Source: a bacterium
GTDB taxonomy: Bacteria; Bacteroidota; Ignavibacteria; UBA10030
Assembly (NCBI GenBank): GCA_043803945.1
Contig: JAZDJN010000067.1
Coordinates: forward strand, 1 to 26,156
Direction of reading: 5' to 3'
DNA: 26,156 nucleotides
Shown here: piece by piece, positions 1-25,718 of the stretch
How positions within the stretch are numbered: position 1 is the stretch's first letter
Layout: every line of letters begins with the position of its first letter
Notes under the pieces: model-generated
Databases searched by the model: none
What the model saw: only the letters and a program-made list of their open reading frames with translations
Told to the model about the DNA's origin: nothing
Position numbers and translations under genes: made by a program

Positions 1-202
1 TAAAGGAAACAGCGCGGATGCATTTGGTGGATCAGCCTTATTGGCAGCCAGCCCGGATAACACAAAGGCATTGAGCGGTGTGGCTGGTGGAACAGGTACA
101 GGCAACTACTATGTGTTTGTTGGTGGTTCAGTGACGGCAGCGGTTGCACAGACTCCCGGAACATATACCGGTACCTACACTGTCGGCGTCGCATACAGAT
201 AA
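1..202 (+). CDS. DUF4402/Csu-like fimbrial subunit, C-terminal part (5'-truncated); possibly the major pilin
   Basis: Not in the ORF track. Frame 2 is open from base 2 to TAA at 200-202: ...GTGNYYVFVGGSVTAAVAQTPGTYTGTYTVGVAYR*. This aligns with the C-termini of the next three ORFs (GTGNYYIFVGGSITIP...AIYLGSFTLTVTYQ). Confidence 0.8.
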   Translation, partial: KGNSADAFGGSALLAASPDNTKALSGVAGGTGTGNYYVFVGGSVTAAVAQTPGTYTGTYTVGVAYR

Positions 203-214
203 GAACAGAGGAAG

Positions 215-274
215 CACACTTCGCCCACGGCGAGACGGAGAGAGAAGCGGAGGTATCCCGTGGGCGAATGTGTG
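215..274 (+). terminator. Intergenic stem-loop (mRNA stabiliser or partial terminator) after the first pilin
   Basis: CACACTTCGCCCACGG (215-230) pairs with CCGTGGGCGAA-T-GTGTG (258-274): 16 bp with one bulge and a 27-nt loop. There is no U-tract. Confidence 0.5.
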
Positions 275-352
275 AATCAAGAGTTTGCCAGCGATATTTA
301 GAAGATGTGTTGCAAAAATTAAAACGAATCACCAAGAATCCAATAAAGCATA

Positions 353-883
353 ATGTTTGCCGACCAAAATAAAAGAAAACTTGTAAGAAGGAACATCAGC
401 CTGCTGTTTGGGTTGATTCTTCTGTGTACTAATGTACACGCGCAGCTTTCGACCTCGGCAAGTGTCACAGCAACAGCAACGGTCCTTCAAGCACTTTCGA
501 TAGCGGCAAGCGGCGGTACCTTCAGTGATGGAGTGTTGGATTTCGGCAATCAATCGCTTAATACCACAACGACAATTAATCCCAAAACTAGTGCCGATGC
601 CATCCTTCTGACGATTGCCGGTGCGGCAAATGCAAATATTAAGATCGACTATATAAAAGTCGATCCAACAGATGGTACAATCTCAGTACCTTTTACACCG
701 GATGTTCGGGGCCATACCGTCAACAATAGTGCTCCCTCGACCGCTCTTGCGAGCGGAAGTATTCGCGCAATTAACGGGACAGGCAACTATTATATTTTTG
801 TCGGTGGGTCAATCACGATTCCCGCCGGCGCTCCAACAGCGATTTATCTTGGTTCATTTACGTTAACAGTGACATATCAATAG
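353..883 (+). CDS. DUF4402/Csu-like fimbrial subunit
   Basis: Signal peptide ending VHA|Q. Alternating N-terminal strand STSASVTATATVLQALSI, LDFG motif, C-terminal YYIFVGGSITIP...IYLGSFTLTVTYQ as in chaperone-usher pilins. Lies upstream of chaperone and usher genes. Confidence 0.8.
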   Translation: MFADQNKRKLVRRNISLLFGLILLCTNVHAQLSTSASVTATATVLQALSIAASGGTFSDGVLDFGNQSLNTTTTINPKTSADAILLTIAGAANANIKIDYIKVDPTDGTISVPFTPDVRGHTVNNSAPSTALASGSIRAINGTGNYYIFVGGSITIPAGAPTAIYLGSFTLTVTYQ

Positions 884-886
884 TAA

Positions 887-1435
887 ATGTGGATTCTCTC
901 AATGGAAAACGAACGACAATCATTCAATAAAGTTCTGATCATGATTCTCCTTCTCGGAGGTCTTGAAATGAATTCGAATGCGTACGCTCAAAGTTCGCTT
1001 TCAAGCAATGCGACCGTTAAGATTTCGGCGTTGAATGGATTGACAATTCTCAAGGTTCGTGATCTTAATTATGGAATAGTACCGCAAAATTCGACAGCGA
1101 CAATTGCGGTAACAGATGCACAGACAGGGAAATTTACCGTTGTTGGTACTAAGACCAAGAATGTTATCACAACGCTTACGCCTCCAGCAACCCTCACGAA
1201 TGGATCAAACTCGATAACCTATACCGCACAAGCCTCATTTAATAATCTTGCCGATAATCCGGCAACAGCCACTGAATGGATTCCCGCTTCCGGTGTAAAA
1301 GCCGGATTTAGGCCATCGGCAAATACCAGTGGCAACATTGGAGAATTTTATATATATATATATGGTTCAATAACAGTCGGAAATGTTCCGGCTGGAACCT
1401 ATACAGGTGTTTTTACAGTCTCTGTCAGTTATTAG
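887..1435 (+). CDS. DUF4402/Csu-like fimbrial subunit
   Basis: Signal peptide ending AYA|Q (start may be a later Met at 902 or 941). SSNATVKISALNGLTI strand, DLNYG motif, C-terminal PAGTYTGVFTVSVSY. Confidence 0.8.
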   Translation: MWILSMENERQSFNKVLIMILLLGGLEMNSNAYAQSSLSSNATVKISALNGLTILKVRDLNYGIVPQNSTATIAVTDAQTGKFTVVGTKTKNVITTLTPPATLTNGSNSITYTAQASFNNLADNPATATEWIPASGVKAGFRPSANTSGNIGEFYIYIYGSITVGNVPAGTYTGVFTVSVSY

Positions 1436-1503
1436 TCCATCAATGAGGAGGTGTTCTGATACCTCCAAACTTCCTATATCGGATCAATCTTCCACTTATC
1501 GTT

Positions 1504-1944
1504 ATGATCGTCATTTGCACGATCTGTAATGTCCAGCACTCTGTTGCTCAGCCAATAACTCTGCAAAAACTGCTCGATCTCAATTTCGGCACCATTATCG
1601 CCGGGACAAATGCATTGGTCAATCACACTGATCCGACTGCCGCGAAATTCAGGGTTCGTTATTCTAAAAACGCCGCATTGCAGGTGACTTTTTCGCTACC
1701 AACGAATTTAAGCACCGCCTCAAGCAATTTGATGCCCGTTGCATTCCCGGCAGGAGCTGCAGCATGGGCAGATAAGGATCAGCTCACAGGAAGAACGACG
1801 TTCAATCCCCAAACAGGAACTTCATTTACCATGCCCAAAGATAAGGATATCTATCTCTGGCTGGGAGGATCGCTTTCTCCTCCAAGTTCGCAACAGGCAG
1901 GAACATACTCTGCCGTTGTTACCATTATTGTTACAGTATTATAG
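1504..1944 (+). CDS. DUF4402/Csu-like fimbrial subunit lacking the N-terminal extension
   Basis: SVA|QPITLQKLLDLNFG; C-terminal IYLWLGGSLSP...AGTYSAVVTIIVTVL. The true start may be upstream (CTG 1456 or ATA 1459, after GAGGAGGT at 1445-1452). Confidence 0.75.
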   Translation: MIVICTICNVQHSVAQPITLQKLLDLNFGTIIAGTNALVNHTDPTAAKFRVRYSKNAALQVTFSLPTNLSTASSNLMPVAFPAGAAAWADKDQLTGRTTFNPQTGTSFTMPKDKDIYLWLGGSLSPPSSQQAGTYSAVVTIIVTVL

Positions 1945-1951
1945 AGAGTCC

Positions 1952-2785
1952 ATGATCAACCTAACTTTCCGTTGCTTGATGTTTACTGCGCTCGTTCTCA
2001 TTATTGTGATGAACTCATTCGCACAGATCACGATTGCACCAACCTTAGTCATGATGAGCGACAAGAATCCGTATGGAATCTTCTTTGTCGCAAATGAAAC
2101 AACGACGGCGCAGGAGGTGACGGTCACATTCAGGTTTGGGTACCCTACTTCAGACACTCTTGGGAATGGCTATATGCAATATGTTGATTCTCTTGCGGAG
2201 CGTCAGTATTCCATCAACACCTGGATCCGTGCATTTCCCCAACGATTTGTCGTACAGCCTAATCAGCGTCAGATGATTCGAATTGTAGCCCGGCCTCCGA
2301 GACAAATTCAGCCGGGGCTTTACTGGACCCGTATTATCGTGGGATCGCAACCTGCCTCAACGCGGATTGATACGTTGACCGCTGGAATTTCGACACAGAT
2401 TACGTTTCGCCTGGAACAGATTACGACAGCCGCGTATAAACGTGGAACCGTTCAAACAGAATTATCGCTCGGGGATTTCCAGGTGCTGCAGGATACCGGA
2501 GCAGTTCACATTCTTGTTCCGATTAAACGGCTTCAGAATTCACCATTTTACGGGACGATATCCCTCCGTGTTCTCGATTCCACTGGGAAGGTGGTGGCGG
2601 AAGATTTTGAGGTCTCCTCAGTCTATTTTAATTACACCAAACGTTTTTCAATTCCACGAGGGAAGTTCGTCGGGAAAGAGTTTGAAGCTGAATTAAAGAT
2701 TATTTCTGAGCGATCTGACATTCCCAAGCAGGATGTTCCTCAGATTGCTCCGCTAACAAAAAAAATCAAGTTCACTCTGCAGTGA
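1952..2785 (+). CDS. Periplasmic fimbrial chaperone, PapD-like
   Basis: ATG 1952 gives a signal peptide (MINLTFRCLMF...SFA|Q). PapD-N-like motifs ITIAPT, FFVANET and WIRAFPQRFVVQPNQRQMIRI. About 277 aa, two-domain size, located between pilins and usher. Confidence 0.8.
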   Translation: MINLTFRCLMFTALVLIIVMNSFAQITIAPTLVMMSDKNPYGIFFVANETTTAQEVTVTFRFGYPTSDTLGNGYMQYVDSLAERQYSINTWIRAFPQRFVVQPNQRQMIRIVARPPRQIQPGLYWTRIIVGSQPASTRIDTLTAGISTQITFRLEQITTAAYKRGTVQTELSLGDFQVLQDTGAVHILVPIKRLQNSPFYGTISLRVLDSTGKVVAEDFEVSSVYFNYTKRFSIPRGKFVGKEFEAELKIISERSDIPKQDVPQIAPLTKKIKFTLQ

Positions 2786-2788
2786 TTC

Positions 2789-5413
2789 TTGCAACGACTC
2801 TTCTTCCATCATCTGGCCATTCTTCTGTTGTTCCTTACTGGACCTGCAGGACGGGTTCAGGCGCAGGATCGTCCTCAAGGGCAGCCTCAGGAAATTTTCC
2901 TGGAGTTTCGATTTAGCTCTGCGAACACAATTATCAATGCGTACCTTTATCGGGACACGATCTATCTTCCCATCGGCGAACTCTTTACTGCTCTGAAAAT
3001 CGATCATACAGTATCGATCGACAAGCGAACCGTTGCGGGAACCTACCTCGATCTCGAATCCTCGTTCCACATCGATTTGGCTCAGCATACAGCTGAGTAC
3101 CGCAGTAAGCAAACTCCAATCAGCGATTCAGAAGTACTCGTCACCGATGCAAATATATTTTTAACACCGCGTTTATATTTCGAGATCTTTAAAATGAAAT
3201 TCCTGCCGGATCTTTCCAATTTAAGCCTGGCCCTCGAATCGCCTTATCCGATGCCAATCGAGGAAGAATTTCAACGTGAGCTACGTCGAAAATCATTGGC
3301 TGTGCCCTTTGCCGTTCGACCATTTGCCCCCTTGTTGTTCACACCTCAGCGGGCGTTCTTTGATGGGGGATTCCTGGACTATAATGTTGTGGCGGCATTC
3401 AATCCCCAGAACCAGTCTATCACCTCCCAATTACGGGGCGGCAGTGAACTACTCGGCGGAGGACTTGAAATTGAATATCTCGGCTCTATTATCAATCAAA
3501 GAAGTCCAAGCTCCGCTGCGTTGGCACGCTGGAATTACATCTTTGAGCCAAATAAGCTCCTCACAGAGGTGAACATCGGGAACCTCAGTTCCGGGGGACT
3601 CAATCAGCATCAGTATCGGGGAATCGCACTCTCAAACGAACCAACGGAGATTCGAAGGTTTTTTGCCTTCTACCAGATAGAGAAAATTCTCTCTCCAGGT
3701 TGGGATGTGGAATTGTTTCTGAATAATCAACTTGTCTCATTTGCCAAACTCGATTCTGCAGGAAAATACGCGACTGAAATTCCTTTAGGATATGGAAGCA
3801 ATCAATTGGAGCTGCGATACTTTGGACTGAAGGGTGAACGGGGTGTTGAAACCAGGAGAATTGATATTCCCATGTCGCTTCTCCCAGCAAGAGAGTTGAT
3901 CTATGCTCTAAGCTTGGGGGAAGTATCGTATAGCGGTACGCGGATGGCTCAGGGAAACCTGATGTATGGTTTAACAGATTTCCTGACCACGACCGTAGGA
4001 GTCGACTATCTCTCCGAAACGAAATTCTCAAAACCGATTTTCTATCAAATGCTCTCCAGCCGTTTCTGGACATCCTATCTGGTGAATCTCGAGTATGCAT
4101 CCTCTTTACGATATGGCGGCAGATTGCGGGCGATCTATCAATCAAATGCAGGGTTCGAGGTTTCATATCTTAACTACCTGCACAACCTCTACTACAATCC
4201 CGCTGACCGAACATCCGAAATCAACGCATCAGGATTTTTCCCCACGATGATCGCTGGTATTCCATTCAATTATCGGATCACCGGTAATTTGACGAAGTTC
4301 GAACGGTTCTCACAATATCAATACAATATTGACGTCTCAAGTGCTTTCTACCCCTGGTATCTCGGCGCGGGATTGCAGCGCTATGCTAATCGAGGGATTT
4401 CAGACCGTTGGTTCGGAACAAGCAGCATCAGGACATTTGCGATCTATAGCGTTTCCTCCCAAGCCGGTGCCTTTGAATTTCTGAATGGTGCAATCATCAA
4501 TGGAACAGCTGATTTTTCCGTTTCCACCGGAACCCTTGAACGGATGAGTATCGATGGCGCTCAATCATTCCTGCCTCATGGAAGGATCCGGTTATCGCTT
4601 GATCATGATTTCCGGCTGCACTCGTCGGGTTTTTTTCTACTCCTGACCTTTGACCTGCCCACTACCTACTACACAACATCAGTGAGTGCTGCTCATACCA
4701 ACGCCTCACTGTATCACACTTTTAATGGGACCATCGGATATGACAGCAACCACGGAGAACTGCTTTTTCATAATCGGGGGGGAGTGGGGCGTTCGGCAGC
4801 AACATTTCTCATGTATGTGGATGCGAATGGCGATGGACAGTTCAACCAAGGAGAACAAATACTCCCGGATGTGAATTTCAATTTAAGTCAGTCAGTGGTC
4901 ATTGATAAGTACCCATCAGGAATGACACGTGTGCGGGAATTACTTCCCTATAATCGCTATAATGTGGAGATAAGCGATGCTTCAGAAGAGAATCCACTTA
5001 TTGTTCCCTCTGTGAAGGCGTTTTCATTTCTTACTCCCCCCAATCGTTATCTTCCCATCGATTTCCCTTTTTACACCTCTGCGATTTTTGAGGGTACCAT
5101 TCAGCGGAGCAGAGGGGGACAGTTCCTCCCGGTGCCGGGATTGAACGTCCATATTAGGGGAGCCAAGGAATTCCATAAGGAGATTCTGACCTTCTCCAAC
5201 GGGAGCTTTTATTATATGGGAGTCCCCCCTGGGGAATACATTGTCTCCCCGGATTCCGCGCAATTAAGAATTTTAAATGTGACGGCTGATCCGCCGCAGA
5301 GAACGATCACCATTGGATTCGGTGGTGAGGGTCAGTTCTTTACCTCCCTGGACTTCATTCTCTCCGATCGTGGTGAAACGAAACGCATTCCCGAGGGTGA
5401 AGCGAAGCGGTGA
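2789..5413 (+). CDS. Outer-membrane usher-like protein with C-terminal SdrD-B/carboxypeptidase-regulatory-like domains
   Basis: 874 aa, TTG start, signal peptide VQA|Q. Usher-like FFDGGFLDYNV and YRGIALSN motifs, and plug-like GWDVELFLNNQLV...EIPLGYGSNQLELRYFGLKGE. Long amphipathic aromatic beta-strand region, then YVDANGDGQFNQGEQ and TFSNGSFYYMGVPPGEYIV. Confidence 0.75.
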   Translation: MQRLFFHHLAILLLFLTGPAGRVQAQDRPQGQPQEIFLEFRFSSANTIINAYLYRDTIYLPIGELFTALKIDHTVSIDKRTVAGTYLDLESSFHIDLAQHTAEYRSKQTPISDSEVLVTDANIFLTPRLYFEIFKMKFLPDLSNLSLALESPYPMPIEEEFQRELRRKSLAVPFAVRPFAPLLFTPQRAFFDGGFLDYNVVAAFNPQNQSITSQLRGGSELLGGGLEIEYLGSIINQRSPSSAALARWNYIFEPNKLLTEVNIGNLSSGGLNQHQYRGIALSNEPTEIRRFFAFYQIEKILSPGWDVELFLNNQLVSFAKLDSAGKYATEIPLGYGSNQLELRYFGLKGERGVETRRIDIPMSLLPARELIYALSLGEVSYSGTRMAQGNLMYGLTDFLTTTVGVDYLSETKFSKPIFYQMLSSRFWTSYLVNLEYASSLRYGGRLRAIYQSNAGFEVSYLNYLHNLYYNPADRTSEINASGFFPTMIAGIPFNYRITGNLTKFERFSQYQYNIDVSSAFYPWYLGAGLQRYANRGISDRWFGTSSIRTFAIYSVSSQAGAFEFLNGAIINGTADFSVSTGTLERMSIDGAQSFLPHGRIRLSLDHDFRLHSSGFFLLLTFDLPTTYYTTSVSAAHTNASLYHTFNGTIGYDSNHGELLFHNRGGVGRSAATFLMYVDANGDGQFNQGEQILPDVNFNLSQSVVIDKYPSGMTRVRELLPYNRYNVEISDASEENPLIVPSVKAFSFLTPPNRYLPIDFPFYTSAIFEGTIQRSRGGQFLPVPGLNVHIRGAKEFHKEILTFSNGSFYYMGVPPGEYIVSPDSAQLRILNVTADPPQRTITIGFGGEGQFFTSLDFILSDRGETKRIPEGEAKR

Positions 5414-5539
5414 TCTGATACAACTTCAAATTTGTTGACCTCATCCTCCATTCTGAAAGAAATCCTAAGTTTTATCCCTGTTCGTACACCCCCTTTAAAA
5501 AAAAATATTCAAAATAGCCAGATAACCGTAAATATTTGC

Positions 5540-5568
5540 TTGCAACTCATATGAGATATTCTTATTCT
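5540..5568 (+). promoter_or_regulatory. Candidate sigma70-type promoter for the 5666 gene
   Basis: TTGCAA (5540-5545), 17-bp spacer, TATTCT (5563-5568) in AT-rich intergenic DNA. The spacer contains the palindrome CTCATATGAG. Confidence 0.3.
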
Positions 5569-5665
5569 TTTCTCGGCGAGCCTATTAGGCAAAAACAACA
5601 TAACTCAAAAGCTGTCTCCTTGTTTCCATCAAGCACGGATTCACACACGTATTTGGGGCAAGGCC

Positions 5666-6001
5666 ATGAAGCTTTTTCTATTACTCTTCTTAATCTTGTT
5701 ACCGATAGGATTGATGGCGCAAACAAGTGCGCGGGGTATAGCACTCGTAAGTGCAATCGTTGTTCCGGCTGTCTGGGTAGAAGTGTCCCCGTCCGAAAAA
5801 AATCCCTCTTCAAAAATTGTGGCAAATCAGTCCTGTCACGAGATTACTTTTCAAGGTTCCGCGACTATTCAAGTTGAGTTTCAGGATCATCAATCGATCC
5901 AGCAAAAGAATCTTTCTTTGAAGGCTGGCATAAGTACCAGTGTACATCTTCCATCGCAGAAAAAGACTCAGACCATTCGTATTACCCATCTCAGTAATTG
6001 A
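5666..6001 (+). CDS. Small secreted protein with a pilin donor-strand-like N-terminus
   Basis: Clear signal peptide MKLFLLLFLILLPIGLMA|Q. Mature start QTSARGIALVSAIVVPAV resembles the pilin N-terminal strand. No pilin C-terminal motif. Confidence 0.7.
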   Translation: MKLFLLLFLILLPIGLMAQTSARGIALVSAIVVPAVWVEVSPSEKNPSSKIVANQSCHEITFQGSATIQVEFQDHQSIQQKNLSLKAGISTSVHLPSQKKTQTIRITHLSN

Positions 6002-6026
6002 CAACCTGATGGAAAATATTTAAGCT

Positions 6027-6077
6027 AGATGACCGGCACCTCAGCATGGATTGAACGCGTTTAGGTGACGGTCATCT
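6027..6077 (+). terminator. Stem-loop downstream of the 5666 gene, possible terminator
   Basis: AGATGACCGGCACCT (6027-6041) and AGGTGACGGTCATCT (6063-6077) form a 15-bp inverted repeat with one mismatch and a 21-nt loop. The U-tract is weak. Confidence 0.45.
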
Positions 6078-6209
6078 CTTCATATACTATTCCTCACCCA
6101 TCATTTCTCATCAAAACCTCCCATTGCTCAAATTCCTCTTTTTTCGACAATTATCCCTTCCTCATTTCCTACCCATCTACGGTGTAGACTGTAGATCACT
6201 ACGTACCTC

Positions 6210-6231
6210 ACCGTATTTTTAAAAATACGGT
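6210..6231. promoter_or_regulatory. Perfect 22-bp palindrome, candidate operator
   Basis: ACCGTATTTTTAAAAATACGGT is its own reverse complement and lies about 100 bp upstream of the first receiver gene. Confidence 0.45.
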
Positions 6232-6327
6232 CTTCCATCGATATCGTAAGTGGACATTTCATCGGATTATTATAGCAACCCCTAGTAATGGGAGAAGTCC
6301 ATTTTTTTTTAAGTGAAAGGTAACTGT

Positions 6328-6735
6328 ATGAAACCTGTCAGAATTCTCATCGCCGACGATCATAAAGATTTTCGCAGTGTGGTTGAGAGGTTTCTCCGCA
6401 ATCTTCCATCTGTAATGGTTGTCGGCGAGGCTTCCGATGGCGTGGAAGTTGTTGAGAAGGTCGAGGAATTGAAACCCGATCTCGTGTTGATGGATATCGC
6501 GATGCCCCAGCGCAGCGGACTCGAAGCGACGCGCATCATCAAGCATCAGTGGCCGGGTGTGCAGGTCATCATCACAACAATGTATGACTATCCGATCTAC
6601 CGGATGCAGGCGCAAGAGGTGCATGCGGATCAATTCGTACTGAAGTCGGCATTGAAATCGAATCTCGAATCTGTCCTTGGCATTCCGCCGAATGGTACAA
6701 AAACAGAAGAATTCGTACCGCCACTTATCAAGTGA
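6328..6735 (+). CDS. Stand-alone response-regulator receiver protein (NarL/FixJ-type REC, no HTH)
   Basis: ATG 6328 follows GAAAGG. Motifs ILIADDH, VVGEASDG, PDLVLMDIAMP (phospho-Asp), Thr in IITTM and Lys in FVLKS. The protein ends shortly after the REC domain. Confidence 0.9.
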   Translation: MKPVRILIADDHKDFRSVVERFLRNLPSVMVVGEASDGVEVVEKVEELKPDLVLMDIAMPQRSGLEATRIIKHQWPGVQVIITTMYDYPIYRMQAQEVHADQFVLKSALKSNLESVLGIPPNGTKTEEFVPPLIK

Positions 6736-6814
6736 TATCCGTCCATTAAGTCAGAGTCAACAATGATTGCGACGGATAGAATACCATATAATTCAATTCA
6801 GAAAGGAGATCAGC

Positions 6815-7219: not shown

Positions 7220-7301
7220 GTGAGGATGTCCTCAGTAATGAACAGCATTCAATATCATAGATGCTTTGCTTTGATGTCGATCTTCATCAGCAAGCTAATG
7301 A

Positions 7302-19300: not shown

Positions 19301-21998
19301 CATAGGAGCGCTGCCGCAAATCTATTCCTCCAATTTTGATACGCTCGAAATTGCCGTTGGAGCAAGCGGACGCGCAGTTGCCTCGGGCATCCTCAGCTCT
19401 TCGCAAATGTTCTTAACGACCGGCACATACGATCCGGGTGTGTTCGGACATACGATCGTCAATAACTTTATTCTCTCTAATGGCACAACGTTGCTGGTTC
19501 GGGGTGCAGAATTTGTAACGAATTACAGCAAGGTCCCGACGAATGTCGGTGCATCCAGTGCCGTTGAGTATAGCAGTAGTGCAATCCAGACGATCAACTC
19601 GACATTTACGTATGGGAAACTTCGACTCGAGGGCGGCGGCTCCAACGCGAAAAGCGCAGGTGGAGCATTGACGGTGTTGGATAGTACGATCATCAGTTCA
19701 GGCTCGACGTTTAACGGTGTATCGTACAACCATCGGATACGCGGAACCTGGAGGAATGAAGGTACCTACGTCTCCAGCACGGGCACCATCACACTTAATG
19801 GAACTGCTGCACAAACGATCGCCGGAACGAGTGCCACCTCCTTCAATAATCTGGTGATGAACAATACCGCAGGTTTAACGATCAGCACAAGTCCCACCGT
19901 CATCGGTACCTTGACCTTCACGAGTGGCACGATCAACACTGGATCGAACAAGATTACCATTGCTGCGTCGGGAGTAGTGTCACGGACCAGCGGTCATGTA
20001 GTCGGCAACTTCGAAAAATATATTGCCGCCGGTGCAACCACCAGGACATTCGAGATTGGCGATGCAACGAATTATACTCCTGCACAGATTGCTTTTTCGA
20101 GTGTCTCCACAGGTGGCTACCTCACCGCCCGCACAGACCCTGGAGATCATGCCGATATCGCGAACTCTGGAATTGATCCTGCCCTCAGTATCAACCGGAC
20201 ATGGACAGTGACAAATAACGGAATCAGCTTCACGACGTATGGTGCGACATTTACATTCGTTCCGGGTGATCTCGATGGCGGTGTTGTTACGGGTGACATT
20301 GTTCTTGCCAAACTGGATGGCATAACCTGGACCAGCCCGACGATGGGTACTGTTACAGCGACGACTATGCAGGCGACAGGGATTACTGGCTTCAGCAAAT
20401 TCCAGGGGGGCAATCCGAGTGTTGCCGATTTCACCTCGATCACAACAGGCAATTGGAATTCCGCTTCGACCTGGGATAAAAATAGAGTCCCGAAGAAAAA
20501 TGATAGAGTCACCATTGCGGCATCGCACACAGTAACGTTGACGGATGCCAGGGAGATAACAAATTTGAGCGTGGCTGCTACTGGTGAATTTGCCATTGGC
20601 ACAAATACGCTGACCGTTTGGGGCAATATTATCCTGAATGGAACCTGGAGCGGCAGCGGTATGATCGATTGGAGAAACAACGGTACATCACTGGGTGGCA
20701 CCGGCACGACGAGCGGCACGCCCATGCTTCAGGCCAATGGCGATAAATCCATTGATGTTTCTGCAACCCTCACACTCTTCCGCATTGATATACCTGCTGC
20801 AAACGCCGTGACAAATAACGGGGCAATTCAGCTTACACGCCTGACAGGCGGGGTTGCGGGGTCTACCTGGATCAATGCCGCTGGTTCAAGCTTATCAGTT
20901 ATTCAAGATCTTCTGACAACCGGTACACTCACGACCCTTGGTGTGGGGAATACACTCACCTACAGTGGTAACACGGCACAGACGGTTAAAGCTATCACAT
21001 ATCAGAATATTGCATTCAGCGGTTCAGGTACTAAAACTCTTTCTGCCGATCTGACTGTACAGGGAGATTTCATAAACTCGTCAACGGTATCAGTCGGAAC
21101 ACATTCATTGTCTATAAGTGGTACAAGGACAAACTCCGGAACAGTCCAGTTTGCGGGGGCGGCGAATGGAGTGCTCTTTACGGATGGTACGGTAGAGTAT
21201 AACGGCACGAGTGTTACTCAAACAATTGCGAGCGGTATATACAACAACCTCACACTCAGCGGATCGGTAGGAAAGACTGCCGGCGGCGATGTAACTGTTA
21301 ATGGGAATTTCAACAACTCCGTTACGACTTCGGTAGGCAATTCTCTTCTTGTAATATCCGGTACGAAGACAAATAGTGGCACAATGCAATTTGCCGGTGC
21401 GAGTAATGGCATCTTGTTCGCAGATGGCACAGTTGAATACAACGGAACTACTTTAGCACAAACAATCACCATCGGGACGTATAATAATCTCACACTCAGC
21501 GGCACAACCTCTAAAGCAATTCCGGCAGGGACATTAGGGATTGCTGGAATATTCACGGTATCGGGAGTCTCTGTCGATGCTACATCGAATAATTCGACGA
21601 TAGACTATTTTGGCAATGGCGCTCAGTCTATTGCCGCAATCGCCTATCATCATCTGACACTGAGAAATAGCGGAACTAAAACTTTTTCCTCAGGGACAAC
21701 TTACATCGGTGGTAACCTAACGATCAGCGCTCCTGCCGCTGCCAATGCAACGACAAATTCGTCAACGATTGAGTATAACGGTACAACGAGCCAGTCAATT
21801 GCCGGTATGACGTACCATCTGCTCAACTTCTCAGGCAGCGGATTAAAAACTCTTTCAGCAACGATGACTGTAAACTCTCACCTGACTGTCAATGCAGGTG
21901 CATCTGTGCTGGTCACCAACACAGGTCTTATCAATCTTCAGGGTGATTTGTTGAATGATGGATATTTCAGAAATGATGGAACGATAATTCCATTTTAG
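7302..21998 (+). CDS. Giant secreted repeat protein (4898 aa), predicted beta-helix/beta-sandwich modular adhesin or filament terminal subunit
   Basis: Uninterrupted 14.7-kb ORF. Hydrophobic signal region ends ALG|Q (Q at 7509); the exact start is uncertain. Thr/Ser/Gly/Asn-rich. Six G8-like W-x-x-x-x-T-W...P...D-x-V-x-I heads and recurring Y-x-G-x-x-Q...Y-x-x-L-x-LSG-x-G-x-K motifs. Confidence 0.9.
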   Translation: MVRRRSISPTQDRRSAATHREAVWLIGLVLSLIENLLERFSRSTTLSRRSLLPFVLLLFVLGMTAEALGQAVFQANAGGGLWNNSGTWTLASGTDADGIPDADDQVTIAGGNLAVTLNGNEACSSLLVQNTGANSTSTRLEIGSYTLAVAGNVTITGGGGNGSKIAQINVGNGILIVSGNLTISAVKGSELNLNLGTSTLNISGSMTGGTNAVLNAGTASTVNLNGTSAQTLNLVDFIFANVTLNNSAGVTANAAITATNITGDLRVETGTFASGGFAIAGNGAKTFEVAGNASFITTTVNPSAFPTGFSISLNANSTVDYAGLTGTTQTVSDQTYGNLKLSGGGTKSAGSAISVAGTLTQTEATTTATLSGTTGHDLTVGKFDLQAGSFNDNGRTITVTGTGSAVWTKAGTFNPTGTTIFTGAAPQIGASNFAALQINVGSGNSALANGILTVTNFALLSGTFNPGLFAHTISTNFSLGSGSTLLVRTALFTGNYSKNPTSVANGSTVDYQGTNSSLANFTHSNLIVSGSITGSSNATVDGAFTVTGSFTPSVGAVRLGNSTIVNSGTLQFRGLELTAGAFVQSSSNFLIDSAMTLLSGASFSPTGTITLNNGVTLANAGTMIFHNLTLNSGALIANTDYSVNGTLSGAGTFNATAGTVTFGNLSSLTISGLSFQNLTFSGAVTANVDMTVKGTLTIGGAGVFNPSSGTVTIPAGGSIVNSGSLSFNNLNTSGTGSVTMNTSFTLKNSFTNMSTITINQTSGVLTTISGASINNSGSLTLSNVTIGGTTTANGTVTVNGAVTLNGNLTVSGGALIMGSSATTNGTFDIIGGVRRGGFIIGTTYSFGNPFTTLTFDTGGTLPDSITYTIQIGSAPVEKTDAVQRSYSIAILNGSGYSASFHLHYRHGELNGNSESAMYLYRKNGSVYQPAGRSAFNTTDDWIGLNNVSTIAGDWAIANKPAHIFTASNDGAWNNPATWGLSGTPSEGETYPGPVDSAYIGNDFEVALTGNHSAYFVSVNAPGNSGTTLLDIGTFSLSIGGTGLNIEGNDADDRIARVRVAGGTLSVSDNIRFIASTDARVVLDISSGASTLNIGRAMVKNTAGTFSPGISSTVVFNGSSAQSINLSGFTYANVTVNNNAGISLLGNVTSANIAGNLRVVGGTLNNNGYSINGDPLKTFEVANGATFILGSTSAFPTGFGTVSLGATSTVNYNGTNQTISEELYGNLTLGGSGSKTIQSPLAIQRTLHQTGTTTSSLSSTSGYDIIVGKVLIDGGTFIDNGRTIEVTGTGSGTWTKTGGTYTANGTTVFSGSAPEIGASNFSTLQIYVGSGNVATAVGALTPNTLTLTSGTFDPGLYTHTVSSNLSIEGGSKLLVRSALYSGNYSLIPTMIQSGSTIEYTATGATVAAVSPEQYENLTISGTVTGASTATVNSTFLVSGTFTPSGGTITFGNGSSLSGTGTTQFSSLSIANSATVTASNVFSVGGTLSVGSGASFSPSNTVTLNSATIVNSGTLTFQNVSLIGTVTANTSFTLSGSMSGAGTLNATSGTITFGNGSSLATSGSVSFNNLTINGTVVANTSFGVKGTLSVNAGGVLNPTSGTVTLSNGSSISNSGTLSFKNLSSSGTVNINSNFTLKGTFTNTGTINQTSGIFSTAAGAVMNNSGTLSLNNLTIGGATTLNDNATVSGTLTLDANLTVVGDSLTMSSSAVTGGTADVIGRIRRTPFTTGTAYTFGNQYTTITFNSATVLPSSIVVKAAIGSSPIEKSDAVHRYYEITETGGSGFNATLRLHYLDSELNSNSEGILSLWKKSGTTYVEEGNISRDQTANWIEQSAVDTLTTTWTLAVETPTGFTAATDGFWDAPATWGLTGTPQEGVNYPGVNDNVNISNNYTVTLRANQSAKKIILVSAGANGTSTLAVGSYTLTVGTGGIELRGGRQNGRKVLITVGGGILNIAGNIFIDAKSIAQAQIDLTGGVGSRINITGDISRNDDNDGALTFNSTGIINFNGTSGGQTLDVTGSIYANIYLNNTSSAGVVLDGAITTVNVIGDIRLQSGTFNTNGFANAGNTGKTFELTNGTTLYLSGVSTFPTGFTPSIGSTSTINYSGGAQTISDQAYGHLTLSGTGAKTINSSISVTGNFTYSATATTSLSATAGQNLTASMFTLSAGTFIDSGRTITVTGTGGQVWTKTGGTFTATGIVNITGAAAQIGSSNFATLSINVGIGNTALANGALSTATFTLTTGAFDPGTHTHTISGSFTVGDGTTLLVRTTTFPGNYSSNPTTQPGSIIEYTNAAASISNAFTYRNLKISGNVTGAASATVIEQFIVSGSFTPATGKMIFNNGASIVNSGAVTFRKLQISNSATVTTASSFSITDSLIVGQNAIFQPSGTVSFVTSGSIDVNPTLLNEGILTFNNLSISAPVHTSSSFTIGGTLDILVNGELNPTGGTTTMTGGSSIVNSWILSFYKLRITGSVTANTNFSVKDSLIVSASGTLQQTSGTVTLENGAKVGNSGSLTFYTLSIAGAVSANTSFSIASSLSVTSSGNLTSTAGTVTMNSGTSISNLGTLNLNNLTIAGGTITGNNNFSMQGVLQLDGNLAMGSNTFEFGSTATSGGTGDVTGRVKRAHVFTASTAYAFGSQYTTVTFTSLTSAPGSITINIIKGSTPPEKVDAIQRYYDITSSGGTYAATLRLRYLTGELNGNDASTLSLWAKVGVSSYADSGKTTNDLVNNWVEDAGITSIVGTWTLSRQNPIGFTAVATGNWNDPATWGRSGIPTEGVNYPGPSDSANIINNVTVTLTGNHSAKNLRVEAPTLDGTSRLDVGAYTLNVGSSGLKIAGGTSDARIATVTIASGKISVLGDVTLQGSSAVRSVLDMSLGANSILEVGGSLSKSGSPTFTPGSSGIVNFNGTTAGQIVNVTSFVYTNLRLNNTSGSGVTLSAAITGTNVTGDVRVQSGIFTNSGYAITGNSGKTFEVANGASFYLTGSSAFPTGFGSISLGSTSTVNYSGGSQSISNQSYGNLTLSGTGNHNITSSLSAAGTLTYSSSGATSLSGTAGHNVTAAKFNQTSGTFNVNSRTITITGTGASTWSKTGGTFAATGEVIFTGSAPEIGASNFDLLRINLASGGVATATGILSATNFYLTSGTFDPGTSLHTITTNFTLAAGTTMKVKTSTFGGNYSKAPTTITTGSTIEYTNTTSTLATLTSPTYSNLKVSGTVTGSSIASINDTLIVSGTVINPGGTITLNNGGRIRVDGGSLTFTNLTTAASATAGSASNFAVAGTLTVGAASTASFTGTVTMNGGSIISNTSGALTFGTLSISGTVTANTNYTISTALSVGLSGVLSPTSGTVIFSNTSSITNQGVLELYDATFSGITSTSSNFSVKNAFSVSASSSFAASGGTVSMLSSSSITNSGTLTFSGLRIDAGTVTSSSSFSISGLLTVASGATFNPAAPCTITMNNGASITRDGTSTFTNLAIAAGTVTGNTNLAVSGTLTLNGTLAMGSNILDLTAATAAIAGTGDVTGNVRRQHAFASSTSYAFGNQFTTLNFASGTLPTSITFTIALGTAPAEKTDAIQRKYSVSVTGGSGYSATLRLHYLDTELNGNTSSTLTLWNKSGASYADQGRTGSVDETNKWVEKASLTSLIGDWTLANQPSVGFTATVTGNWNTPATWSLTGSPQEGVNYPGPTDIVNVNGGFTVTLTANHSAQRVNITGTIAGAAIINVGANTLSVGSGGITLTGGSTDARYACINVDGGTLNVTGNIVYSTGIAARAVVNLGGVGGSAASTMNLGGVMSKSTAGTFTPGSASVVNYNSSALNQTVDVINFTYANLHINNMNASGASLNAAVTAVNVTGNLRVQSGQFSNSGFGIAGNPTMTLEVAAGATLKLTGTSTFPTGFGTISLNAASTVEYNGGAQTVTNQSYGNLILSGNGSKTIASALNVGGRFTYNSSAATSLAAGGLTTSKFTLASGTFSANSAKITVTGTGDSVWIKSGGTFTATGKVSFIGALPQIYSSNFDTLEIAVGASGRAVASGILSSSQMFLTTGTYDPGVFGHTIVNNFILSNGTTLLVRGAEFVTNYSKVPTNVGASSAVEYSSSAIQTINSTFTYGKLRLEGGGSNAKSAGGALTVLDSTIISSGSTFNGVSYNHRIRGTWRNEGTYVSSTGTITLNGTAAQTIAGTSATSFNNLVMNNTAGLTISTSPTVIGTLTFTSGTINTGSNKITIAASGVVSRTSGHVVGNFEKYIAAGATTRTFEIGDATNYTPAQIAFSSVSTGGYLTARTDPGDHADIANSGIDPALSINRTWTVTNNGISFTTYGATFTFVPGDLDGGVVTGDIVLAKLDGITWTSPTMGTVTATTMQATGITGFSKFQGGNPSVADFTSITTGNWNSASTWDKNRVPKKNDRVTIAASHTVTLTDAREITNLSVAATGEFAIGTNTLTVWGNIILNGTWSGSGMIDWRNNGTSLGGTGTTSGTPMLQANGDKSIDVSATLTLFRIDIPAANAVTNNGAIQLTRLTGGVAGSTWINAAGSSLSVIQDLLTTGTLTTLGVGNTLTYSGNTAQTVKAITYQNIAFSGSGTKTLSADLTVQGDFINSSTVSVGTHSLSISGTRTNSGTVQFAGAANGVLFTDGTVEYNGTSVTQTIASGIYNNLTLSGSVGKTAGGDVTVNGNFNNSVTTSVGNSLLVISGTKTNSGTMQFAGASNGILFADGTVEYNGTTLAQTITIGTYNNLTLSGTTSKAIPAGTLGIAGIFTVSGVSVDATSNNSTIDYFGNGAQSIAAIAYHHLTLRNSGTKTFSSGTTYIGGNLTISAPAAANATTNSSTIEYNGTTSQSIAGMTYHLLNFSGSGLKTLSATMTVNSHLTVNAGASVLVTNTGLINLQGDLLNDGYFRNDGTIIPF
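7518..20429 (+). repeat. Five diverged tandem protein modules within the giant ORF
   Basis: Module heads at 7518 (FQANAGGGLWNNSGTW), 10191 (FTASNDGAWNNPATW), 12849 (FTAATDGFWDAPATW), 15552 (FTAVATGNWNDPATW) and 18258 (FTATVTGNWNTPATW), with a sixth head at 20430 (FTSITTGNWNSASTW). Spacings are 891, 886, 901, 902 and 724 aa. Confidence 0.9.
21000..21479 (+). repeat. Tandem 240-bp (80-aa) duplication in the C-terminal region of the giant ORF
   Basis: ISGTRTNSGTVQFAGAANGVLFTDGTVEYNGT versus ISGTKTNSGTMQFAGASNGILFADGTVEYNGT. Unit-initial Tyr codons fall at 21000, 21240 and 21480. Confidence 0.85.
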
Positions 21999-22070
21999 GT
22001 GATCGAACTATGAAAAAAGAATTTGAGATCAACTCATATGAATAGATTCATTACGGAGAGGAGTACTTCC

Positions 22071-23462
22071 ATGAAAACCTTCTTATCTCACAGAGTGAGC
22101 AAAGCAACCCCATTGTTTTTGTTGCTCACACTTGCTCTAAAAGTGGGATTCGCACAAGGAGTATTGAAGAATAACGGTACGTTCGTTAACACCGGTACCT
22201 CGACTTATACCCGGATTGAAAATTTCAAGACATCAGCAGGAACAATTCTCAATTCGGGTACGCTGAACAGCACCACGACATTTCTCAATCAAAGCGGTGG
22301 ATTAAACGGAAAAGTACTCAATTATATTGGCTCGGGTGGTGGGACGATTAATGTCACCACTAATCTCGATAACAACGCAGCCGGAGCGATCTTTGATAAT
22401 GATAGTCTGACACTTTCAACGGTATTGCGTGTTGGTGGATCCATTACGAATGCAGGGACATTCGATACAGACACAGGGAAAGTAGAGTACAATGGAGCCG
22501 GTGTGCAGACTATTATTGCTACAACGTATGGGGCTCTCGTCACGAGCAATGCAAGCGCGAAATCAATTGCCTCTGGAACGACGACCGTGAGGGATTCCAT
22601 ACGTATCGCCGGTTCGTCAAGCATCGTAACGAGTACTAATACTCTTTCTTTTAGTGGAGCGACTTTTACACTGCAAGGAACAGGCGCCCTGGATGCATCG
22701 TCCGGTACAGTGAATTATTCCGGTGACCGAGACCAGCAGATTATCGCCGGTACATACGGCACACTGATCACTTCCGGCTCAACGACTGCAAGAACGAAGA
22801 CAGCCACCGGTAATGTGACACTCAGTGCTTCCGGTTCCCTGACAGTGGGGAACAATGATACTCTCAGTGTAACAGGGAATCTGAATCTTTCCGCTGCGGG
22901 TGTGACGCTAACGAATAACAATGTCATCAAGATGGGTGGTAATGCGACATTTGTTGGTACGATTACTAGTGTCGGGTCATTCTACTATGCCGGTTCGGGT
23001 TCACAGAACATTGGTACAAATACTTACGCAACTCTTCGGCTGGGTGGCAGCAGCACAAAGACATTTCCTAACGGGACTGTGGCAGTCACGAGTAATTATA
23101 CGATTGACAATGGGAGTGGCAGCCGGGATTACACTTCCAATACGAGCACCTTCCAATTTGCAGGAACCAGCGGTACACAGACGATCTCCGGGCTCTCCGA
23201 AACATTTTACATACTTCAGTTTGCCGGTGCGGCCACGAAACCGATTTCAGGGACATCGCTTGGAGCGGCACGGCTTGATATTCTCGCCACCAGCGGGCTC
23301 GTCACGAATAACGTAACCACGATGACGTTGACTAATATTTCTAACATTAGCATGACGGTAGCTTCTGGAGCATCATTCCAGAACAACCAGGCGATTTTAT
23401 TTAACGGTGATATCGAAAACGATGGAGTCTTTACAAACGCAGGTACGGTTACAGCTAACTAA
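22071..23462 (+). CDS. Secreted beta-helix repeat protein related to the C-terminal region of the giant protein
   Basis: ATG 22071 follows GAGGAG (22058-22063); signal peptide ends GFA|Q. Repeats VEYNGAGVQTIIATTYGAL, VNYSGDRDQQIIAGTYGTL and YYAGSGSQNIGTNTYATL. Ends GDIENDGVFTNAGTVTAN. Confidence 0.85.
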   Translation: MKTFLSHRVSKATPLFLLLTLALKVGFAQGVLKNNGTFVNTGTSTYTRIENFKTSAGTILNSGTLNSTTTFLNQSGGLNGKVLNYIGSGGGTINVTTNLDNNAAGAIFDNDSLTLSTVLRVGGSITNAGTFDTDTGKVEYNGAGVQTIIATTYGALVTSNASAKSIASGTTTVRDSIRIAGSSSIVTSTNTLSFSGATFTLQGTGALDASSGTVNYSGDRDQQIIAGTYGTLITSGSTTARTKTATGNVTLSASGSLTVGNNDTLSVTGNLNLSAAGVTLTNNNVIKMGGNATFVGTITSVGSFYYAGSGSQNIGTNTYATLRLGGSSTKTFPNGTVAVTSNYTIDNGSGSRDYTSNTSTFQFAGTSGTQTISGLSETFYILQFAGAATKPISGTSLGAARLDILATSGLVTNNVTTMTLTNISNISMTVASGASFQNNQAILFNGDIENDGVFTNAGTVTAN

Positions 23463-23467
23463 CGATG

Positions 23468-23754
23468 AACATTCACAACAATATGAAAGGAGGTTCCTAT
23501 GCGAACCGATCAATGCAGACCGCCTTAGGTCAAGGGGAGTCAGCTTCAGCGTTGCTCTCTGAGCAAGAGCAATGTATCTATTCACTATTAATTATTTACT
23601 CGCCTAAAGGTAACGCATGGCGGGCAAGCTATTCACAATTTCAAAAGGAGCTACAACAATGTCGTACAAACAAGAAACACCACAGGGAAAAAGCAACAAG
23701 CATTCACAATTCACCCACAATTCACAAACACATTCTAAAAGGAGTACAGTCATG
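23468..23754 (+). promoter_or_regulatory. Leader region with three ATTCACAA...AAAGGAG...ATG units
   Basis: Units end in ATG at 23499, 23659 and 23752, each 7-8 nt after an AAAGGAG. ATTCACAA or close variants occur at 23471, 23580, 23631, 23702 and 23720. Confidence 0.55.
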
Positions 23755-25377
23755 AATACCAAGTCAATCATCGCAGCCATCGTTACCCTCTTCTTAATCG
23801 TCGGAGTGGCATCTGGACAAAAAATCAAGAACAAATCAACATTTACCAACAATGGTATAATGTCTGTAGGGACGTTCCAGAATTATAATGGAGCTGCTGG
23901 TACATTGGACAACAATAATGGAGCAACCCTCACAGTCTCGGCGCTTCTAGATAACAAGTATAACGCAGCCACAGTCAATAACCTGGGTACGATCACTATG
24001 ACAGGGGCAAGTACATTTGATAATAGTTTGTCAGGTGGAATCGTCTCCAACACAAGTAACGGTCTAATCAACATGTCAGGTGCCACCAGTGTTTATGATA
24101 ACACAGCTGGAACTACAACAAATTCTACCACAGCAGCGGGTAAGGGATTCAGGTTTGTAAATGCAGCTGGAGGGGCATTAGTGCCAGGTTCGGGTTTCAC
24201 AACTTCCTCGGGTAGAGTTGAATATGCCGGTACGGGTGGAACAGTCTATTCAGGAGTTGCAACTGGTACATATGGTAAACTCGAAATTAACACATCAGGA
24301 ACACGAACGATGGATAACTCAATCTCTGTGGGAGATGTGACCCTGACTGCCGGAACCTTCGATGTCGGTAGTGGCTATAAGTTGACAGTAACAGGGGTTG
24401 GAGGGGTAGCAGGAGCTGGTGCTTTGACAGCTAATGGGAGTACGACCACTGAGGTTGATTATGCAGGTCCCGATGGACAACCGATTAAATCTACTACGTA
24501 TGCAAAACTGACTCTGAGTGGTGCTGGCACACGACAAAAGACGATCAGTGGCGATGTGACCGTTGCTAATGCACTTAAAATCGATGCGGGTAATGAACTT
24601 CTTATTCCTGAGACCCCATCTCTCTATACCCTAACACTCAACAGCAGTTCAGTCCTGGACAACTCAGGTTGGGTTCGTATTTATGGCGACATTTCTTTTG
24701 GATCCTCGATGACTCTCACAGCCATTGGTTCATTTGAGTATGGACGAGTAGCTGCAGGTCAAGTTGTAAAGCCATTTTCATATGCTAATTTGACTTTGTC
24801 GGCTGGAGCAAAAACGATGGGTGTCGCTCCTGCTGATGCGATCTCAGTTTCTGGTACATATAATGCAGGCGCAACGGCTGATTATCGCAGCAACACAACG
24901 TCATTCACTTATGCAGGCGGTGGTGCCCAAGATGTCCGTGCCGGTAACTACTATACTTTAGCGATGACGACGGGGGGAGCAAAGTCGATTGGAGCAGGCG
25001 TTGCTGTTGAAGCAAAAACTGTTACAGTTGCCACTGGTGCTCTTACTATTGATGGAACAGGGTCATTACAAGTTGGCTATACTGGACAAAATGGAAGCAT
25101 GTCGATTTCGAGCAACTTCACTAATAATGGTGACTTAACACTCGGACACAACAATGCTTCACCGACATTTTATGCATCCCTCACGTTCTCTGGTGCAACT
25201 CTTACGAATAACTTAAACATAAGAGTATTTGGCAGTGATGCGTTGGGAACGTACTTCTTACAGAACGATGCAACAACTGAATTAGTCAACAGTGCTACGG
25301 GCGTCATTGCATTAAAGGCTGCGGATTTTGTGAACAATGCTTCATTTTCGAATGCTGGCAGTATCACGGTTGAATAG
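23752..25377 (+). CDS. Secreted beta-helix repeat protein, candidate major filament subunit
   Basis: ATG 23752 follows AAAAGGAG and gives a canonical signal peptide MNTKSIIAAIVTLFLIVGVASG|Q. Repeats VEYAGTGG...YGKLEI, VDYAGPDGQPIKSTTYAKLTLSG and FTYAGGGAQDVRAGNYYTL. Ends ADFVNNASFSNAGSITVE. Confidence 0.85.
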   Translation: MNTKSIIAAIVTLFLIVGVASGQKIKNKSTFTNNGIMSVGTFQNYNGAAGTLDNNNGATLTVSALLDNKYNAATVNNLGTITMTGASTFDNSLSGGIVSNTSNGLINMSGATSVYDNTAGTTTNSTTAAGKGFRFVNAAGGALVPGSGFTTSSGRVEYAGTGGTVYSGVATGTYGKLEINTSGTRTMDNSISVGDVTLTAGTFDVGSGYKLTVTGVGGVAGAGALTANGSTTTEVDYAGPDGQPIKSTTYAKLTLSGAGTRQKTISGDVTVANALKIDAGNELLIPETPSLYTLTLNSSSVLDNSGWVRIYGDISFGSSMTLTAIGSFEYGRVAAGQVVKPFSYANLTLSAGAKTMGVAPADAISVSGTYNAGATADYRSNTTSFTYAGGGAQDVRAGNYYTLAMTTGGAKSIGAGVAVEAKTVTVATGALTIDGTGSLQVGYTGQNGSMSISSNFTNNGDLTLGHNNASPTFYASLTFSGATLTNNLNIRVFGSDALGTYFLQNDATTELVNSATGVIALKAADFVNNASFSNAGSITVE

Positions 25378-25650: not shown

Positions 25651-25700
25651 GAGGGAGCTCCGCCATTAAGACGGGCAAGTCCGCTCCCAATCTTCGCGGG
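25651..25700. repeat. REP-like palindromic element A, copy 1
   Basis: GAGGGAGCTCCGCC...ACGGGCAAGTCCGCTCCCAATCTTCGCGGG matches the copy at 26104-26156. Confidence 0.7.
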
Positions 25701-25718
25701 TGTAGTCCGCCCATCCTG

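Follow-up and report, generated by a model that had tools for sequence, protein, structure and literature searches.

Results

Two sets of surface-appendage genes on one contig

Contig JAZDJN010000067.1 (C67) of an Ignavibacteria genome (G000; 5.54 Mb, 118 contigs, 46.5% G+C) was analyzed over its full 26,156 bp, referred to here as the window, and it holds two sets of surface-appendage genes, with all genes of interest co-oriented on the plus strand. Module A (positions 353 to 6001) is a candidate chaperone-usher pilus operon. Module B (positions 6313 to 25377, continuing on contig C65) comprises two receiver genes and the genes for three beta-solenoid (beta-helix) proteins, i.e., a giant and two smaller proteins called bh2 and bh3. 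The best explanation of the data below is that these are independent modules lying side by side by chance. Functional statements throughout are based on sequence, predicted structure, and comparative genomics. The original prediction, made from the letters of the window, had joined both gene sets into a single appendage system; its gene content and orientation were borne out, but its count of at least four pilins plus a small secreted protein was not, as we find three pilins and one small pilin-like gene.

Sec-type signal peptides had been reported on the exported proteins, and our reading of the sequence places them on the pilus proteins and on the three beta-helix proteins. Signal peptides and cleavage sites were read by eye from a positively charged n-region, then a hydrophobic stretch, and finally Gln preceded by Ala or Gly. 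Gln follows the likely cleavage site in 7 of 9 signal peptides (eight window proteins and the C65 adhesin described below), the exceptions being pil3 of module A and the adhesin. This resembles the "Q-rule" described for Bacteroidetes signal peptides, which is reported not to be valid for the entire Fibrobacterota-Chlorobiota-Bacteroidota (FCB) group (PMC5837995).

Three beta-solenoid proteins without a recognizable sorting domain

The giant (positions 7302 to 21998; 4,898 amino acids [aa]) has a signal peptide, approximately 4.6 units of approximately 920 aa (positions 7539 to 20138) that are 37 to 48% identical to one another, a bh2-like C-terminal module (positions 20499 to 21998), and no sorting domain; in Pfam and NCBIfam it gave only a sub-threshold match to Amnionless. 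Its C-terminal stretch of about 500 aa aligns as a homologue with full-length bh2 (positions 22071 to 23462; 463 aa) and with full-length bh3 (positions 23752 to 25377; 541 aa), a paralogue that is 28 to 29% identical to bh2; both smaller proteins have signal peptides. Giant orthologues in relatives measure 1,802 to 4,635 aa. An AlphaFold2 model of bh2, with a predicted local distance difference test score (pLDDT) of 92.0 and a predicted template modeling score (pTM) of 0.87, is an all-beta solenoid whose strands run from residue 29 to residue 462, with no cap at either end.

A first search returned 45 bh2 homologues, all similar in length and devoid of Pfam domains, and a search for longer homologues was uninformative, giving 1 protein without Pfam domains. 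One homologue is named "fibronectin-binding autotransporter adhesin" in its public source. Only two public loci were found with bh2 as the query, labeled as Bacteroidota and Ignavibacterium metagenome-assembled genomes. Elsewhere in G000, contig C74 (11,700 bp; locus L053 is its part 6001 to 11700) holds a single open reading frame (ORF) of 3,900 aa, open at both ends, which codes for a further giant repeat protein that shares 38% identity over 217 aa with a domain of the giant in the window.

The genome encodes type IX secretion system (T9SS) machinery, evident by SprA, PorU (1,001 bits), and 149 matches to the sorting-domain family Por_Secre_tail (PF18962). C67 holds none of these 149 matches, nor any of the 165 ORFs found genome-wide by a locally built profile of the T9SS C-terminal sorting domain (CTD). 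The giant, bh2, and bh3 gave no Pfam or NCBIfam match to Por_Secre_tail/TIGR04183/PF18962, to CHU_C/TIGR04131/PF13585, or to autotransporter models; a C-terminal beta-barrel, a two-partner secretion (TPS) domain, and PATR were likewise unmatched in both libraries, and the bh2 model stays a solenoid to residue 462 of 463. Thus, the reported absence of a T9SS or autotransporter ending from all three proteins stands by Pfam, NCBIfam, and the local CTD profile. Lipoprotein anchoring was rejected, as Cys occurs in none of the signal peptides, and type I (RTX) export was rejected because of the Sec signal peptides and the lack of an RTX match.

A shared rung motif at the ends of the solenoids

Almost all bh2 homologues end in a solenoid rung of the form NGDLxNDGxhTNxGTIxV(Y/N/Q). 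In the giant, this motif forms the last 16 aa (positions 21948 to 21995), a proposed donor end, and the same motif type ends the giants of all relatives examined. Both smaller proteins have a rung at each end, at positions 22164 to 22199 and 23412 to 23459 in bh2 and at positions 23824 to 23859 and 25327 to 25374 in bh3. A strict form of the pattern matched 43 times in the 5,278 ORFs of at least 150 aa and fell within 22 residues of the C-terminus in the giant, bh2, and bh3 only, each time at a distance of 16; the common C-terminal motif ascribed to these proteins is therefore both real and specific. That the motif is a common internal repeat rung was rejected, with only 3 internal strict matches in the giant's 4,898 aa.

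Directly behind a signal peptide, the strict pattern occurs in just three ORFs, i.e., bh2, bh3, and the Big_1 adhesin of C65. There are accordingly three donor C-termini (giant, bh2, and bh3) and three acceptor N-termini (bh2, bh3, and the adhesin), in gene order. Each giant and each small solenoid in relatives is rung-ended, and the donor/acceptor layout is kept with one to five rung-ended proteins. The acceptor rung of the adhesin lies 1 to 4 residues from the predicted cleavage site in all 8 of 8 orthologues.

A complete HMMER search based on the bh2 profile gave 2,292 representative clusters at E ≤ 0.001, of which 247 reached E ≤ 1e-30. The best 150 of the 2,292 clusters were checked for a CTD with the local profile (165 ORFs in G000, compared to 149 with PF18962) and for a rung with a loose end pattern, which matches 16 of 5,252 ORF ends of G000. 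Short members (≤700 aa) had a rung end in 40 of 47 cases and a CTD in 0 of 47; among the 103 long members (>700 aa), 33 had a CTD, 16 a rung end, none both, and 54 neither. As CTD and rung end were never found together (0/150), they appear to be alternative solutions.

The conserved next gene encodes a Big_1 adhesin with a sorting domain

The last 141 bases of C67 overlap exactly with the end of C65 (reverse complement), and no other contig overlaps. The first gene on C65 is an adhesin orthologue with 9 Big_1 stretches (E = 2e-64) and a type A sorting domain, which scored 27.3 bits with TIGR04183 against a cutoff of 23; TIGR04183 also matched two orthologues. The local CTD profile matched the adhesin with an E value of 1e-25, and PF18962 alone scored 25.3, just under its cutoff of 27. 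Because the contig ends before it, this gene was invisible to the original prediction.

A bh2-family profile was built from 35 sequences, and an E value of ≤1e-30 was taken as a strong match. In 12 of the 13 genomes with a strong match, the N-terminal module of the adhesin (a profile of 250 residues) lay on the same strand as the bh gene and at most 4 kb downstream, and in the 13th (G402) the contig ends at this point; the module profile matched 147 of 401 genomes in all, with the unpublished G404 counted among them. Wherever the downstream gene is fully visible, it encodes both the N-terminal module and a CTD (13 of 13 related loci). Gene order in relatives starts often with a histidine kinase and a LuxR-type regulator and continues with one or two receivers, the giant, one to four smaller rung-ended solenoids, a spacer, and a last protein of 681 to 2,069 aa. 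This last protein has Big_1 and invasin-type immunoglobulin (Ig) repeats where it was scanned with Pfam and a T9SS sorting domain in every mapped locus. In G058, G025, G429, G335, G356, and G368, the adhesin gene is followed by the gene for a conserved protein of approximately 250 aa that has a hydrophobic segment in its C-terminal part; G000 lacks this gene at that place and has its only similar one on contig C52 (30% identity).

No exporter candidate is conserved across the 15 loci examined. CsgG, CsgE, and CsgF genes were not seen in the loci examined, and no Omp85-type gene was found in the 15 mapped loci by ORF inspection and our own profiles only. The flanks, proposed as the place to look for CsgG-like, Omp85-type, or T9SS genes, thus yielded an adjoining gene for a T9SS-CTD adhesin and neither of the other two, and the data support the proposal that the exporter of the beta-helix proteins is encoded outside the window. 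A standard T9SS, type V, or type I secretion signal, which the original prediction had named as evidence against itself, is absent from the beta-helix proteins, and a standard T9SS signal (TIGR04183) is present on the conserved next gene.

A predicted bh2-adhesin interface joins the two motifs

We modeled a complex of bh2 (residues 29 to 463, with its own alignment) and the first 250 mature residues of the adhesin (8-row alignment). The complex scored 0.83 (the median of 0.82, 0.83, and 0.83), compared to 0.00 for the best of three controls; 116 of 157 solved complexes attain the mark of the tool, as do 2 of 215 mismatched pairs, and these counts are only approximate when own alignments are supplied. 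Contact agreement between the runs was at least 98%, and the pLDDT of the partners was at least 88. In the predicted interface, residues 422, 425, 432, and 444 to 463 of bh2 face residues 1 to 21 of the adhesin, i.e., the two motifs, stacked in register.

Beta-helix genes and usher genes are mostly found apart

According to the original prediction, the beta-helix proteins are substrates of the neighboring chaperone-usher system, which would read their C-terminal strand like that of a pilin and build a composite or second filament through the divergent usher. Several features of G000 fit this idea: the two clusters are adjacent and co-oriented, the pilus cluster has no two-domain tip adhesin, and pilins and beta-helix proteins alike terminate in a beta-strand whose last residue is often aromatic. 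The distribution of the genes speaks against it. The bh2 profile matched 39 of 400 other genomes at E ≤ 1e-10 and 13 at E ≤ 1e-30, and the usher family was present in 3 of these 13 (G029, G221, and G270), each time on a different contig. Usher and bh families shared a contig in 0 of the 17 genomes holding both, and a bh2 or bh3 homologue lay near the usher in 0 of 11 usher loci from 10 relatives. The genomes G058 and G025, which are 100% complete, encode the beta-helix module and gave no usher match. Upstream DNA is visible in nine related beta-helix loci (G243, G402, G335, G025, G058, G067, two in G213, and G005), and a pilus cluster of any kind is absent from it in 8 of the 9.

The ninth locus, in G243, counts in favor of a link and against the independence of the two modules, since a pilus-type cluster, though of a different kind, sits between the regulators and the receiver-giant genes, the slot held by the pilus genes in the window. 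This cluster (L033, 7418 to 14735) encodes four secreted proteins of 169 to 213 aa, a chaperone-like protein of 270 aa, a barrel protein of 998 aa, and two more small secreted proteins. The 270-aa protein is related to the window's chaperone (E = 8.4e-13); the 998-aa outer-membrane-barrel protein has NPCBM_assoc and CarboxypepD_reg domains and was unmatched by the usher profile or BLASTP. A pilus cluster in this slot in 2 of 10 loci could reflect coupling or co-regulation. In the same direction, the usher family occurs in 17 of 39 bh-positive genomes, compared to 115 of 400 overall, relatives not being independent of one another. Altogether, the synteny check argues against a functional unit of the beta-helix proteins with the DUF4402 chaperone-usher cluster, and export of these proteins by the usher is unsupported, as their homologues occur mostly without the usher cluster. 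The part of the proposal that survives is that the three beta-helix proteins constitute a second filament-type module.

Module A and its predicted usher fold

The pilus operon begins with two pilin-like proteins that have signal peptides, pil1 (positions 353 to 883; 176 aa) and pil2 (positions 887 to 1435; 182 aa; 27% identical to pil1), whose weak DUF4402 matches (E = 0.0015 and 19.7 bits, and E = 0.0013 and 19.8 bits, respectively) are under the cutoff of 25.2; homologues of pil1 lie upstream of the usher in related loci. The 146-aa pil3 (positions 1504 to 1944), conserved in related usher loci, is the only pilin above the Pfam cutoff (E = 3e-8; 34.8 bits). They are followed by a candidate PapD-like periplasmic chaperone (positions 1958 to 2785; 275 aa), which stands beside the usher in 9 of 11 related loci, by the outer-membrane usher (positions 2789 to 5413; 874 aa), and by a small secreted pilin-like protein (positions 5666 to 6001; 111 aa) with a signal peptide and no match in Pfam or NCBIfam. 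Small ORFs after the usher in the loci of G030 and G016 have T-I-T-x-L-S-like C-termini that resemble this 111-aa protein, which may be a small fourth pilus subunit. Small pilin-type genes homologous to those of the window are conserved in 9 of 11 related usher loci. The reported lack of a two-domain tip adhesin was confirmed, as the four pilin-like ORFs measure only 111 to 182 aa and the cluster holds no larger ORF of this kind.

The usher and the chaperone gave no match in Pfam, including its Usher family (PF00577) and its PapD families, or in NCBIfam (E ≤ 0.01 and 0.1). Searches of the PDB, run both with single sequences and with profiles, retrieved neither an usher nor a chaperone, and a word-indexed homologue search with the usher returned itself and one weak match only. 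PapD_N matched 3 of 10 chaperone orthologues weakly (best E = 1.2e-4) and did not match the window copy. Yet an AlphaFold2 model of the usher (11 orthologues in the alignment; pLDDT of 79.4) resembled FimD/PapC in all of its best 15 Foldseek matches in the PDB, the top one being 9fw9_D (E = 1.8e-28; approximately 750 aligned columns), with template modeling scores of 0.46 to 0.59. The usher-family profile matched 115 of 400 other genomes of the class, so this usher lineage is common there. Judged by the modeled fold, module A is a true chaperone-usher pilus operon from a lineage unrecognized by Pfam, and it would build its own thin pilus. A full-text literature search found no paper on DUF4402 and none on chaperone-usher together with Ignavibacteria.

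Module A is like known chaperone-usher pili, with FimD/PapC ushers and PapD-type chaperones, in its pilins-chaperone-usher layout, in its usher fold, and in the weak PapD_N matches of its chaperone family; one kind of such pili is the archaic Csu type. It differs from them in having no Pfam Usher or PapD match, no two-domain tip adhesin, and DUF4402-type pilins.

In six relatives, genes for large T9SS-CTD proteins adjoin the usher operon on one side or on both (L016 in G056, L019 in G045, L020 in G037, L021 in G053, L018 in G016, and L014 in G018). Among the flanking proteins scanned, 10 of 13 have Por_Secre_tail, and BNR/sortilin, HYDIN-type Ig, or PATR domains occur. With flanks so rich in CTD proteins, pilus operons tend to occupy surface-protein gene islands. 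Weak Por_Secre_tail matches were also seen on 3 of 10 chaperone orthologues (alignment A2; best E = 2e-4) and probably reflect a shared Ig-like sandwich, not a sorting signal.

Contig C55 carries a sigma-54 regulator and kinase pair, and a similar pair lies upstream of the G029 usher cluster and of the G243 pilus-type cluster; the C55 pair probably belongs to the pilus module. Sequence overlap between C55 and the 5' end of C67 was zero, and a C55-C67 join is suggested by synteny with G243 only.

Receivers, spacer, and ORFs of the window ends

Two stand-alone receiver domains lie between the pilus operon and the giant gene: RR1 (positions 6313 to 6735; 140 aa; Response_reg E = 1.3e-25) and RR2 (positions 6767 to 7219; 150 aa; Response_reg E = 2.6e-24). 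In G243, G029, G402, G335, and G270, an RR1 orthologue immediately precedes the giant gene, and the position of RR2 is conserved in the same way; both receivers probably regulate module B.

Downstream of bh3, a noncoding spacer with hairpin repeats resembling repetitive extragenic palindromic (REP) elements extends over positions 25378 to 26156, its last 141 nucleotides being the reverse complement of the C65 end. The palindromic REP-like repeats, seen also in L051 (11157 to 12728), include 95-nucleotide copies 165 nucleotides apart and 43-nucleotide inverted arms, and an element of approximately 50 nucleotides recurs on at least 10 other contigs. In every relative, a similarly ORF-poor spacer of 0.7 to 2.5 kb lies between the last bh gene and the gene for the adhesin. 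An Rfam scan of the window and the C65 end gave 0 matches, and Tandem Repeats Finder gave 0 arrays on the spacer. ORFs at positions 3 to 335 (minus strand) and 25527 to 26156 (plus strand; 210 aa) have no family match; the first sits in a promoter-like leader and the second within the repeat spacer. Both are probably not genes, and the second is taken as translated repeat.

Discussion

We propose that module B encodes a head-to-tail beta-solenoid fiber that is anchored, and perhaps exported, through the T9SS, a proposal for which the arguments on the two sides seem to us evenly poised. Each uncapped C-terminal rung of 16 to 18 residues would stack on the N-terminal rung of the next protein and so prolong the beta-helix, and the order of the chain would be giant, bh2, bh3, and Big_1 adhesin. 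The sorting domain of the adhesin would serve both for passage through the T9SS pore and for fixing at the cell surface; since its CTD would give export and anchoring, the acceptor N-terminus would point outward, and the signal-less giant, bh2, and bh3 would be held at the adhesin's outer tip. The chain might form before export, riding with the adhesin through the pore, or after it.

A bolder form of this proposal, which we consider rather unlikely, is that the solenoids without a sorting domain hitchhike on the T9SS, stacking in the periplasm onto the CTD-bearing Big_1 adhesin so that the whole rod is drawn through the SprA pore behind a single CTD. If this is true, the product would be a modular surface fiber whose base is anchored, whose shaft consists of one to several units, and whose tip measures up to approximately 5,000 aa; these would be the first signal-less cargo known to be carried by the T9SS, and appendage building that is genetically ordered in this manner would be new.

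Several points weigh against the proposed fiber. The docking comes from one structure-prediction job, and its controls were unrelated proteins, not beta-solenoids; uncapped solenoid ends may stack in silico whatever happens in cells. The exact free N-termini depend on cleavage sites that were read by eye. Foldseek found no PDB match to the bh2 model at E ≤ 0.001; the top matches were mostly weak solenoid matches, including the Ag43-type 4kh3 (the best, E = 0.014) and 7koh, and the second best was curli CsgA (8c50_A; E = 0.026, nonsignificant). Fifty-four of the 103 long family members have neither CTD nor rung end, although many of them may be fragments, and the giant's own end does not fit the loose end pattern. 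Finally, in the literature found on T9SS piggyback or hitchhiking transport, as far as the retrieved text goes, there is no precedent for a T9SS cargo without its own CTD.

Closely related to these points is the view that the terminal rungs are ordinary first and last solenoid turns and the docking an artefact; the proteins would then be independent periplasmic or loosely surface-associated adhesins, linked to the Big_1 gene by a shared regulon. The choice of controls leaves room for this view, as do the three internal strict motif copies in the giant, by which the rung is not exclusively terminal. We nevertheless find it improbable. Solenoids normally have caps, and the bh2 model, with a pLDDT of 92, lacks them at both ends; donor ends equal acceptor ends in G000, and relatives keep this layout; the acceptor rung stands next to the predicted cleavage site in every adhesin orthologue; and 12 of 13 genomes keep strictly to the one gene order.

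It is quite doubtful that the C-terminal rung is instead a new short secretion or sorting signal, read by the T9SS or another outer-membrane exporter, with each protein exported singly and the adhesin merely co-regulated. The motif does stand at a fixed distance from the C-terminus in all family members, it is never combined with a CTD, as expected of an alternative signal, and most small members have an aromatic last residue. However, mature bh2, bh3, and adhesin begin with this motif too, which a C-terminal export signal leaves unexplained; the complex model puts exactly the two motifs in contact; and none of the 15 loci offers a conserved exporter candidate. Export of the solenoids by the usher is highly improbable, being largely refuted, as the genes compared here suggest, by their distribution, and a 4,898-aa solenoid is unlike the single Ig-like domains, held by donor-strand exchange, that usher pores are generally known to pass.

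The proposed fiber shares features with several known systems. As with type A adhesins secreted by the T9SS and with giant gliding adhesins (e.g., Flavobacterium SprB), the host belongs to the FCB group, encodes SprA, PorU, and approximately 150 CTD proteins, and makes giant repetitive surface proteins; the Big_1 adhesin of module B is itself a standard TIGR04183 cargo, and the long repeat-family relatives include CTD proteins (33/103). Unlike such cargo, the giant, bh2, and bh3 have neither a type A nor a type B CTD and end in a bare rung that is never combined with a CTD. With autotransporter and TPS passengers (Ag43, pertactin, and HMW1), the window proteins share a right-handed solenoid adhesin fold, going by weak Foldseek matches, but they stop at the last helix rung, with no C-terminal beta-barrel, TPS domain, or PATR match.

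In curli, CsgA subunits are reported to stack head to tail on a CsgB nucleator (PMC10192328). The common principle would be beta-solenoid subunits joined at their ends above a basal unit bound to the cell, an arrangement that is predicted from models in our case. In contrast to curli, no CsgG, CsgE, or CsgF accompanies the loci examined, the subunits are solenoids of 450 to 4,900 aa and not 13-kDa amyloid units, and the chain appears to be built from nonidentical members, in gene order, on a base anchored by a CTD.

The Tat pathway and peroxisomal import are described as moving signal-less partners by piggyback (hitchhiker) transport (PMC9251779). There, as in the proposed fiber if the chain forms before export, a folded signal-less protein is carried by a signal-bearing partner. 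In the papers found, within their retrieved portions, a T9SS version of such transport is undescribed, and for module B we infer it.

For the organisms themselves, module A indicates that chaperone-usher pili are common in Ignavibacteria-type genomes (115/400) yet missed by Pfam models, and surveys of pilus distribution therefore undercount them. If the docking model of module B is true, it would explain how a widespread class of FCB-group surface proteins, very large and devoid of a sorting domain, reaches, or stays on, the cell surface, and it would point to a modular "plug-in" principle for T9SS adhesins, possibly with co-export of signal-less partners.

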